IMG/VR virus record: IMGVR_UViG_3300010167_000005
Span: 1-40,050 of that record
DNA: 40,050 nt
Direction: 5' to 3' (one strand)
Source of the DNA: a virus
This document shows, piece by piece, positions 23,038 to 24,075 of the stretch (position 1 is its first letter; the number at the start of each line of letters is the position of its first letter). The notes beneath the pieces were generated by a model. That model saw only the letters and a list, made by a program, of their open reading frames with translations, was not told the DNA's origin and did not search any database. Position numbers and translations under genes: made by a program.

Positions 23038-24075
23038 ATGGATGGAATGACACCGCACGCCGGTGAGCATCCTGCCGTACATCATCACTACGAACACGCG
23101 TACGTACCCTATATGGAACCGCGTACGTGGGCTCGCAGAGGAATGAGAGGAAGAACATTCCTTGACATAGACGACGATATGTACGAGCACGGAGATGTTC
23201 ACATTCACAACGTGCACGAAAAAGAAGGAGGAAGTTATATGGATAGTTTGGCGCCAATGCTGGTAGCAATGTGCCAGAAACAGGGAATTGACCCTGGTAT
23301 CGTGGCAATGATGGAAAGAGACAAATGCGAAGGACATGATGGCATGTTTGGCGGTAGTGGAATGCTAATGATGTTCCTGCTACTGATATTGTTCGCAGGC
23401 GGAAGAGGATTTGGCTTCGGCGGAAGGGACGGCTGTGAAGGCGGCTATGGCGGAGGCTATGGTGGCGGTTACGGCGGAGCAGGCATAGTGAATCAGATAG
23501 ATTATCAGACGATCTTGCAGGCAATAACATCGAACGGCAAAGAACAGGAAGCGATATTCCGTGCTTTGGCGGCACAGATCGGCGTTGACGCAAAGGACAT
23601 ACGCAACGCAATATGCTGCCTCGATAAAGGAATGGCTCTGATGGAAGGCAAACTTGCGTTCCTTGACGAGAGCATAAAATGTGCAGTGAAAGAATGTTGC
23701 TGCAACATGAGGCTCGAAGTTGAGAGGTCAACCAATCTCCTCAGCAGGGAGATATGCAGTTTGAGGAACGATGTTGACAAAGGCTTCTGCGCAACAAACG
23801 CCAATGTTGACAACAAATTCTTCATACTGAAGAACGACATGGACAGACAGTTCTGCGAGACAAAATCTCTCATAAAGGAACTGGACACGAACAACCTCAT
23901 CAGAGAACAGCAGGAAAAGATATCGGCATTGCAGGCAGGTGCGTTCCAGTGCTCGCAGGATAAGCAGACAGAAAGAATTCTGTACGCCTTGAGATGTGAG
24001 CCGAGACGTGTGTGCTTCGATGAACGTCCGCGTTGCCACAGGCACAGACGCGACGAGGATGATGACGACGAGTGA
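23038..24075 (+). CDS. Orphan His-rich / single-pass membrane / (GGY)3 / Cys-rich coiled-coil protein (345 aa)
   Basis: N-terminal HPAVHHHYEH and HGDVHIHNVHE, then transmembrane segment MLMMFLLLILFAG and GGYGGGYGGGYGG. The coiled coil carries ICC and ECCC, and the tail reads RPRCHRHRRDEDDDDE. GGTGA Shine-Dalgarno site. Confidence 0.65.
   Translation: MDGMTPHAGEHPAVHHHYEHAYVPYMEPRTWARRGMRGRTFLDIDDDMYEHGDVHIHNVHEKEGGSYMDSLAPMLVAMCQKQGIDPGIVAMMERDKCEGHDGMFGGSGMLMMFLLLILFAGGRGFGFGGRDGCEGGYGGGYGGGYGGAGIVNQIDYQTILQAITSNGKEQEAIFRALAAQIGVDAKDIRNAICCLDKGMALMEGKLAFLDESIKCAVKECCCNMRLEVERSTNLLSREICSLRNDVDKGFCATNANVDNKFFILKNDMDRQFCETKSLIKELDTNNLIREQQEKISALQAGAFQCSQDKQTERILYALRCEPRRVCFDERPRCHRHRRDEDDDDE
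23440..23478 (+). repeat. In-frame tandem repeat encoding GGYGGGYGGGYGG
   Basis: ggcggctat ggcggaggctat ggtggcggttac ggcgga, read directly from the sequence. Confidence 0.85.

Follow-up and report, generated by a model that had tools for sequence, protein, structure and literature searches.

The gene at 23038..24075 on the plus strand of IMG/VR virus record IMGVR_UViG_3300010167_000005 (positions 1 to 40,050; this whole stretch of 40,050 nucleotides (nt) is called the window below) encodes a 345-amino-acid (aa) protein, here named X, which is a divergent member of the viral protein family phrog_16490, in a branch carried by methanogen viruses. X is very probably a membrane-inserted, non-enzymatic protein. 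We tentatively favor the view that it is an accessory factor, produced late, that acts on the cell envelope without being an enzyme, either by modulating lysis or egress or by superinfection exclusion, and that it is not the primary lysis effector. With its ends overlapping by 123 bp, the window represents the complete genome, ~39.9 kb, of a tailed virus, and X lies at the distal end of its late operon, past the tail fibre gene and a fibre-assembly-like gene. The gene and the segments of its product are as follows.

23038..24075, plus strand: X, the 345-aa divergent phrog_16490 member, with an ATG start in the list of open reading frames (ORFs).
23038..23235, plus strand: acidic His-rich head, aa 1-66, specific to the clade, with 10 His and a net charge of -6; predicted to be disordered (predicted local distance difference test score, pLDDT, <50).
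23236..23340, plus strand: two predicted short helices with a conserved pre-membrane motif (..QKQGIDPGIVAMM..DGMFGG), aa 67-101, from alignment A1 and an AlphaFold2 (AF2) model (helices 68-81 and 86-94).
23341..23400, plus strand: single hydrophobic, predicted transmembrane helix, aa 102-121, from Kyte-Doolittle analysis; its position is conserved across the family.
23401..23484, plus strand: Gly/aromatic-rich segment GRGFGFGG...(GGY)3, aa 122-149, with near-invariant G/F columns; predicted to be disordered.
23485..23997, plus strand: long alpha-helical, Cys-studded domain, aa 150-320, with 11 Cys (AF2 helices 185-282 and 284-319).
23695..23703, plus strand: CCC, aa 220-222, the family signature, which 171 of the 179 family members and at least 90% of the aligned rows contain.
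23743..23874, plus strand: four 11-residue repeats, aa 236-279 (SREICSLRNDV / DKGFCATNANV / DNKFFILKNDM / DRQFCETKSLI).
23998..24072, plus strand: CEPRRVCFDERPRC and a mixed-charge R/H/D/E tail, aa 321-345, specific to the clade and far longer in the related IMG/VR locus L018 and in the metagenomic relative P0001.

The composition of X is unusual. Its 13 His residues include clusters at aa 7-20 and aa 51-60, and its 16 Cys residues (4.6%) include a CC pair at aa 193-194 in addition to the CCC run. There is one hydrophobic helix only (best 19-residue Kyte-Doolittle window 2.05), GRGFGFGG and the three GGY units occupy aa 135-146, and the C-terminal tail reads RPRCHRHRRDEDDDDE. A previous sequence-only reading of this DNA had listed the ORF together with the His clusters, the helix, the GRGFGFGG/GGY segment, the Cys residues and the tail, and every one of these was found again in the sequence. 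X is a real gene with metagenomic homologues: four proteins are 43-53% identical to it over 78-95% of its length, and ~28 more distant matches are 250-316 aa long.

The same reading had called X an orphan, a label that does not hold. X matches the phrog_16490 profile at E 9.8e-7 (29.7 bits), with aa 83-313 aligned to profile positions 9-220 of 286. By this measure it is a marginal scorer, at 30 bits versus 100-230 bits (E 1e-36 to 5e-68) for bacterial members; we accept the assignment because it is backed by a BLAST match of X to a protein of virus vir335 (2e-15) and by the strong scores of the bacterial members. A protein of vir215 was matched at 3e-10, and tblastn likewise returned vir335 and vir215 as relatives, both of which are recorded with a Methanomassiliicoccales host. 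When a 29-member family profile was run against 1.84 billion cluster representatives, 3,516 representatives were recovered at E<=1e-3, 1,732 at E<=1e-10 and 285 at E<=1e-30, and the phrog_16490 family comprises at least 3,500 clusters at 50% identity. Carriers include crAss-like and other Bacteroidota phages, Clostridium and Butyrivibrio phages and Methanomassiliicoccales viruses; among those with names are Bacteroides phage C3_41T2LP, four Clostridium perfringens phages (the gene is gp039 in CPD1) and Butyrivibrio virus Ceridwen, and Vibrio and Aeromonas phages gave partial matches. Members in crAss-like phages carry the labels 'spike protein/glycoprotein' or 'outer capsid protein/viral fiber'. 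A literature search for the function of any phrog_16490 member found no paper.

Alignments A1 and A2 define a common core in a fixed order: a short head whose conserved motif ends in DG(M/F)FGG, one hydrophobic helix, a GGRGFGGYGGGYG-type segment, a long helical domain (~150-170 residues) with a near-invariant CCC and ~10 further Cys, and a coiled coil (..L..E...L....SQ..Q..), to which bacterial members add a Pro/Cys/Gly-rich tail. The 179 members examined have a median length of 269 aa, with a helix that begins near residue 32, and a median Cys count of 11 with nearly all of these past the helix, and the post-helix domain is rich in N/A/Q/T and contains 5.4% Cys. X shares this architecture, with the hydrophobic helix followed by GFGG/GGY and then by a helical domain containing CCC. 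It differs from bacterial members in its additional 66-aa His-rich acidic head and R/H/D/E tail, in a helical domain that is highly charged where theirs is N/Q/T-rich, and in being paired with a partner gene that was not found in the bacterial cassettes. What is new here is the His-rich head, the charged tail, the charged helical domain and the dedicated partner, in a methanogen-type virus; the family itself was already catalogued. The sequence-only reading had proposed searching viromes for the combined His-cluster/GGY/Cys-coil architecture; the family core proved to be widespread, while six or more His before the hydrophobic helix were seen only in X and in proteins P0001-P0004 among the 179 members.

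The AF2 model of X places a membrane helix at residues 108-120 and, besides the two long helices, further helices at 156-164 and 168-181, with pLDDT 70-93 over aa 220-320. A Foldseek search of the model against PDB gave no match. The hydrophobic periodicity of aa 185-282 is 3.65 residues, and the four 11-residue repeats follow the form DxxFCxxxxx[VMI], an arrangement that may place Phe and Cys on one face of the helix, as in a hendecad bundle. Cys spacing across the family peaks at 18-20, 22 and 29-31 residues and shows no simple 11-residue ladder; the 11-residue Cys register is thus local to the window clade. Just before the helix, a conserved motif of the form [ST/DP]xx[DS][VI]AA[VLM]..N..DG[MF]FGG (alignment A1 columns ~120-160, aa 84-107 of X) was observed. 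We take this motif to resemble a double-glycine leader, cleavage of which would leave the hydrophobic helix at a new N terminus; Pfam detected no C39 peptidase in the cassettes that contain X.

In bacterial phages, X homologues are found beside ordinary lysis genes. In L003, a Bacteroidota prophage, a GH108 endolysin and a gene resembling a unimolecular spanin (u-spanin) precede X, and an integrase follows. The spanin-like gene (L003 8989-9489), directly past the endolysin, encodes 166 aa, with a lipoprotein-type signal (..LMVFGC) at the N terminus and a transmembrane helix at the C terminus. In L006, L007 and L010, X comes after an r1t-type holin and an M15/M23 endolysin, in a block of small genes just ahead of the replication genes. 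An amidase and a holin lie upstream of X in CPD1, and a glucosaminidase does so in Ceridwen. In the crAss-like phage cr116_1 a module containing X is located between the holin/L,D-carboxypeptidase genes and gp31/major capsid protein; crAss001, which belongs to the same subfamily, lacks X and has the two blocks directly joined. Because X coexists with normal lysis genes and crAss001 does without it, X is an accessory cassette, placed past tail or lysis genes, and is neither the lysin nor a core part of the virion. The bacterial members coexist with separate and full lysis cassettes, and the family is therefore not a stand-in for holin and endolysin.

The genes that accompany X in these phages were also recorded. 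In Firmicutes siphophages X lies within a conserved seven-gene block (L006 6875-10196, with equivalents in L007 and L010) whose members include a papain-like protein of 126 aa (phrog_3754), a beta-rich protein of 143 aa (phrog_20016) and an R/G/Y/D low-complexity protein of 158 aa. Bacteroidota and crAss cassettes contain other genes of analogous composition: phrog_31654, phrog_28898, an acidic/RGY protein of 75-82 aa and DUF7841. Bacterial cassette neighbours matched only PHROGs of unknown function (3754, 21718, 20016, 31654, 28898 and 38431) or DUF7841, and PDB sequence searches with them were empty. A C1q/BclA-like head and a papain/C39-like peptidase, both noticed by eye among these neighbours, were not confirmed by Pfam.

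The window itself encodes no recognizable lysin. Among its ~60 ORFs, Pfam and PHROG scans detected neither a glycosidase or amidase nor a lytic peptidase or Pei-type domain, and X and its neighbours contain no PeiW/PeiP or other endolysin catalytic domain; the only peptidase-like match in the window was a SprT-like domain at 37590-38240, in the replication region. These scans bear out the sequence-only reading, which had seen no lysin motif anywhere in the genome and would have been refuted by a conventional lysin found elsewhere in profile searches, and its assignment of X to the lysis slot agrees with the position of the gene past the tail fibre, where siphoviruses usually keep lysis genes. 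In the phage collection, the portal and major capsid protein match solely Methanomicrobiales virus vir524. Methanomassiliicoccus is described as free of a wall polymer and as probably having two membranes, with a double-membrane envelope given for M. luminyensis (PMC4243693). Since the head genes match only a methanogen virus, and such methanogens lack pseudomurein, the absence of a muralytic enzyme is to be expected and is therefore no evidence for X as an egress device. A provirus search of 185,579 species genomes with two clade alignments returned no relative and thus gave no direct host assignment. The earlier proposal that X and its neighbours are the best candidates for an unconventional egress system stands as far as the missing lysin is concerned; against it, the family coexists with complete lysis cassettes and crAss001 lacks the gene. 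In the archaeal clade, egress is a candidate role of X.

Directly 3′ of X lies the partner gene:

24175..24558, plus strand: partner, a soluble, all-helical protein of 127 aa, defined by the partner profile.

Matches to this profile were found 3′ of X in all nine archaeal-type loci examined (the window, L018, L015, L016, L017, vir335, vir215, L020 and L021), eight of them independent, as L016 and L017 are near-duplicate contigs. The order tail fibre, Zn-ribbon gene, X, partner recurs in L018 (IMG/VR, 39.7 kb) and L015, where homologues of the window's Zn-ribbon protein precede X (E 2e-12 and 3e-13, respectively), and the X-partner pair recurs in L016/L017, vir335, vir215, L020 and L021. In vir215 (L002, NC_092586) the partner is an unannotated ORF at 9687-10043 (profile E 2.8e-23) that lies within a 530-nt 'gap' separating the X homologue, which is annotated, from the coding sequence that follows. 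There is no T-run between X and the partner in the window, from which we infer co-transcription. The partner family comprises 37 clusters, and the AF2 model of the partner has 5 helices (pLDDT 86). Fold searches of PDB and BFVD gave nothing for it, nor did Pfam, PHROG and PADLOC, and a signal sequence and a lipobox are both absent. Two possible relationships were discarded: hhalign showed no relation between the partner and a 170-180-aa protein of the Bacteroidota cassette, and it did not support a likeness to the N-terminal motif of X (both read 'KQG[IV]..P..[VL]M' by eye). Shortly past the X-partner pair in L018, the gene at 7400-7657 encodes an 85-aa product that resembles a class II holin, having two hydrophobic helices and a C terminus that is strongly basic.

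The remaining genes of the late region, together with the spacer upstream of X, are as follows.

7550-9109: TerL, from Pfam/PHROG scans.
9109-11226: portal/MuF, from Pfam/PHROG scans.
12229-12627: cement-like protein, from Pfam/PHROG scans.
12627-13502: major capsid protein, from Pfam/PHROG scans.
14941-15369: lambda-like tail tube, from Pfam/PHROG scans.
16168-17445: tape measure, from Pfam/PHROG scans.
20475..22331, plus strand: tail fibre, 618 aa; its repeat-rich N terminus resembles the L018 tail fibre (blastp 2e-13).
22328..22726, plus strand: tail-fibre-assembly-like protein, 132 aa (phrog_188 E 2.5e-7; Caudo_TAP E 0.0024).
22764..22979, plus strand: small Zn-ribbon protein, 71 aa, with CPYC...CPFC and a basic PGRKK tail; weak Zn-ribbon/RING Pfam matches only.
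22980..23037, plus strand: 58-nt spacer read from the sequence, with T-runs, TTTATA, ATATAAAA (TATA-box-like) and GGTGA 7 nt before the ATG.
24576..24740, plus strand: possible 54-aa ORF with four CC pairs (KCCE, NCCE, ECCK, KCCK), from the ORF list; uncertain as a gene.
24707..25522, plus strand: membrane protein, 271 aa, with four hydrophobic segments (four predicted transmembrane helices, 4-TM).
25519..25806, plus strand: 95-aa protein, the last late-operon gene, from the ORF list.

The tail fibre had no match in Pfam, PHROG or phage records, and the fibre-assembly-like product resembles that of a 138-aa gene upstream of X in vir215 (E 2.8e-11). The Zn-ribbon protein may bind DNA. The 58-nt spacer is a putative promoter of X, as judged from its letters; a scan for sigma-70 promoters and terminators was uninformative, the virus being archaeal. 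No family match and no counterpart in related loci were found for the 54-aa ORF. The 4-TM protein had no family match and is a true ORFan, matching only itself among 5.8 billion clusters; located two genes past X, it is by position the better holin-like candidate. The 95-aa protein had no match in Pfam, PHROG or PADLOC.

Several features outside the late operon were observed in passing. Small minus-strand genes at 25856-26448, between the late operon and an AT-rich control region, encode a 68-aa DUF7218-like protein (E 8e-5) and a 112-aa phrog_33370 protein (E 3e-8). The 10-mer AGTAGTAAAA occurs, with up to one mismatch, 18 times in the window versus 3.0 expected (maximum 7 in 100 shuffles), and 16 of the 18 copies, in both orientations, fall in AT-rich intergenic clusters at 6480-6922 and 26526-26860 that bracket the late operon; the clusters are probably iterons or operators (replication origin or early/late control). 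At 33679-35339 and 38945-39553, a Vut_1/YhhQ-type queuosine-precursor transporter (Pfam 8.9e-35) adjoins a weak tRNA-guanine-transglycosylase-like protein (phrog_887, E 0.002), and a weak phosphoribosyltransferase-like protein is encoded there too; together these genes may serve 7-deazaguanine modification of DNA as a module. No integrase turned up in the window.

Our tentative reading of X as an accessory envelope-acting factor combines its membrane helix and long helical domain with its place in the genome. X is read as non-enzymatic because Pfam, NCBIfam and PADLOC yielded no domain for it and PDB no similar fold. In the mechanism that we propose, X would insert into the host cytoplasmic membrane through its single helix and oligomerize through the 11/3-periodic helical domain into a stalk. 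Cys side chains would then be located at or close to the helix interface, where they would make thiolate/metal layers or cross-links. Metal- or charge-dependent control would come from the two parts peculiar to the clade, the His-rich head and the R/D/E tail, and the partner would bind X.

Several observations weigh against this reading. Its functional part is drawn from architecture and gene position, and the AF2 model of X is of low overall confidence (mean pLDDT 59, predicted template modelling score 0.24). Throughout the family the helix has almost no flanking charge, and arguments from composition conflict as to topology: a high Cys content disfavors an extracellular domain in anaerobic Firmicutes, and a composition rich in N/Q/T/A speaks against a typical cytoplasmic coiled coil. 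The adjacency to tail-fibre genes and the crAss 'viral fiber/spike' labels would suit a virion fibre, and adjacency to lysis cassettes may just reflect a general insertion hot spot.

One of the two roles named in that reading can be taken on its own. As a moron-type factor for superinfection exclusion or receptor masking, X would form a stalk, anchored in the membrane of an infected or lysogenic cell, to keep related viruses from entering or to protect released progeny, a role that we regard as doubtful. T5 Llp and phi80 Cor are receptor-masking or exclusion proteins whose genes adjoin receptor-binding genes. T5 llp and phi80/N15 cor encode accessory envelope proteins beside tail-fibre genes, as X does in the archaeal clade and in L004; however, the Llp and Cor products are small lipoproteins, whereas phrog_16490 proteins are coiled coils of 250-350 aa with a transmembrane helix, and there is no homology. 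A site with the lysis cassette on one side and integrase or replication genes on the other is classic for lysogenic-conversion genes, and this is where X lies in L003, vir215, L006, L007, L010 and CPD1. The accessory, patchy distribution of X, the 55-150-nt gap and small DNA-binding-type gene before each cassette, and the fast divergence of the C-terminal tails also fit exclusion. On the other side, PADLOC defence models matched neither X nor the partner nor their neighbours, known exclusion proteins are much smaller and have no long coiled coils, and crAss-like phages carry X inside the late region; the multi-gene modules around X in bacteria suggest more than a blocker, and exported proteins of anaerobic Firmicutes do not usually contain so much Cys.

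Alternatively, X, the partner and the downstream membrane protein could form an egress machinery, a holin-, spanin- or fusogen-like disruptor that replaces holin and endolysin in a wall-less, possibly double-membraned methanogen. This is unlikely, although the position of X in the slot after the tail fibre in a genome without a lysin favors it, as do the downstream membrane proteins (the 4-TM ORFan here and the 85-aa, two-helix, basic-tailed protein in L018) and a host group that may have two membranes (PMC4243693).

The succession of a Gly-rich hydrophobic helix and long helices is reminiscent of i-spanins, holin T and class I fusion proteins. For holins, Pfam, PHROGs and NCBIfam gave no match of X to any holin family, and X is at odds with a holin in its 345 aa, in a window without an endolysin and in bacterial carriers that encode separate holins. 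A parallel is the class III holin T of T4, which is bitopic, as X is predicted to be, with one transmembrane helix and a large, Cys-containing C-terminal domain. Holin T has the small soluble antiholins RI and RIII, and the partner of X is likewise a small soluble protein that could bind. X nevertheless has no sequence or profile similarity to holin T, is larger, carries its helix 100 residues in and has no adjacent endolysin, and its bacterial relatives have holins of their own.

Spanins (lambda Rz/Rz1, T1 gp11) resemble X in combining a membrane anchor with a long helical domain in which Cys is functionally important, and in their place at the end of the lysis region. However, the helix of X at aa 102-121, near residue 32 in the family, is not at the extreme N terminus as in an i-spanin; no ORF with a lipobox lies in or near 22.7-25.8 kb; and the partner is soluble and helical, without a lipobox. 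The family also occurs in phages of monoderm Clostridia, in which no spanin is needed, and L003 carries its own u-spanin-like gene beside X.

HA2 and other class I fusion proteins resemble X in having a hydrophobic, Gly/aromatic-rich segment followed by a long polar helix, and the best PDB sequence matches of the family profile were all to influenza HA2 residues 9-91 (E 3e-4). With a 31-sequence profile the HA2 score was 23.9 bits, versus a maximum of 14 in 3,000 composition-preserving shuffles and likewise in 6,000 shuffles overall; with a 179-sequence profile it dropped to 18 bits, and H3 HA2 scored ~13 bits. We treat the resemblance as analogy and not as homology, as it depends on residue order but is weaker with the deeper profile. 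X moreover has no C-terminal anchor, its single hydrophobic segment being N-proximal, and the virion, that of a tailed virus with TerL, portal, major capsid, tail tube and tape-measure genes, is not enveloped. The 'spike/fiber' labels of crAss genes may stem from a coiled-coil resemblance of this sort. Egress is further opposed by the bacterial members found beside complete lysis cassettes, and by crAss001, which lyses its host without an X gene.

A virion role is rather improbable. Here X would be an accessory trimeric coiled-coil fibre or membrane-penetration needle, its hydrophobic, Gly-rich segment buried in the tail and inserted on infection. X is a late-operon gene beside tail-fibre and fibre-assembly genes, its relatives have an N/Q/T/A-rich helical domain as in fibres and include the crAss members with fibre or spike labels, the HA2-like pattern is weakly present, and the small beta-rich protein past X in Firmicutes cassettes is the one that looked C1q/BclA-like by eye. 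Yet the Firmicutes cassette is past the lysis genes, at the start of the replication region and distant from the tail genes, and the very hydrophobic helix is hard to square with a soluble fibre. The crAss001 virion has been mapped in detail, and crAss001 has no X. Pfam and PDB sequence searches found no fibre domain in X or in its beta-rich neighbour.

A bolder proposal, which we consider improbable, is that phrog_16490 is a new class of non-enzymatic membrane-active proteins in which a hydrophobic, Gly-rich, fusion-peptide-like segment is driven by a Cys-laddered coiled coil, and that X and its partner would be a spanin/fusogen-like, lysin-free egress device with which archaeal tailed viruses breach the envelope of wall-less, double-membraned methanogens. 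Very improbable as the primary function is a metal- or redox-dependent membrane factor, an alternative raised by the sequence-only reading in which binding of Ni, Zn, Co or Fe, or sensing of the redox state, would be the task of the Cys ladder together with the HxHxH/HDHD runs of the His-rich head: the 13 His in two clusters and 16 Cys of X, the longer HEHDHDHD runs of close relatives, the CCC and CGCGC-type tails common in the family and its near confinement to viruses of strict anaerobes fit by composition, but no known metal-binding domain was detected in X, this support is compositional only, and the head, absent in 174 of 179 members, cannot define the function of the family.

Whatever the activity of X, phrog_16490 is a very large family, with a CCC motif common to crAss-like phages, Clostridia phages and gut methanogen viruses, to which no function is assigned. 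Several of its carrier phages are cultivable, making the family experimentally tractable, and for the egress of tailed viruses from pseudomurein-free archaea, X and its partner provide a concrete, conserved gene pair. The spread of the family over bacterial and archaeal viruses points to an exchange of cassettes between two viral worlds in the gut.

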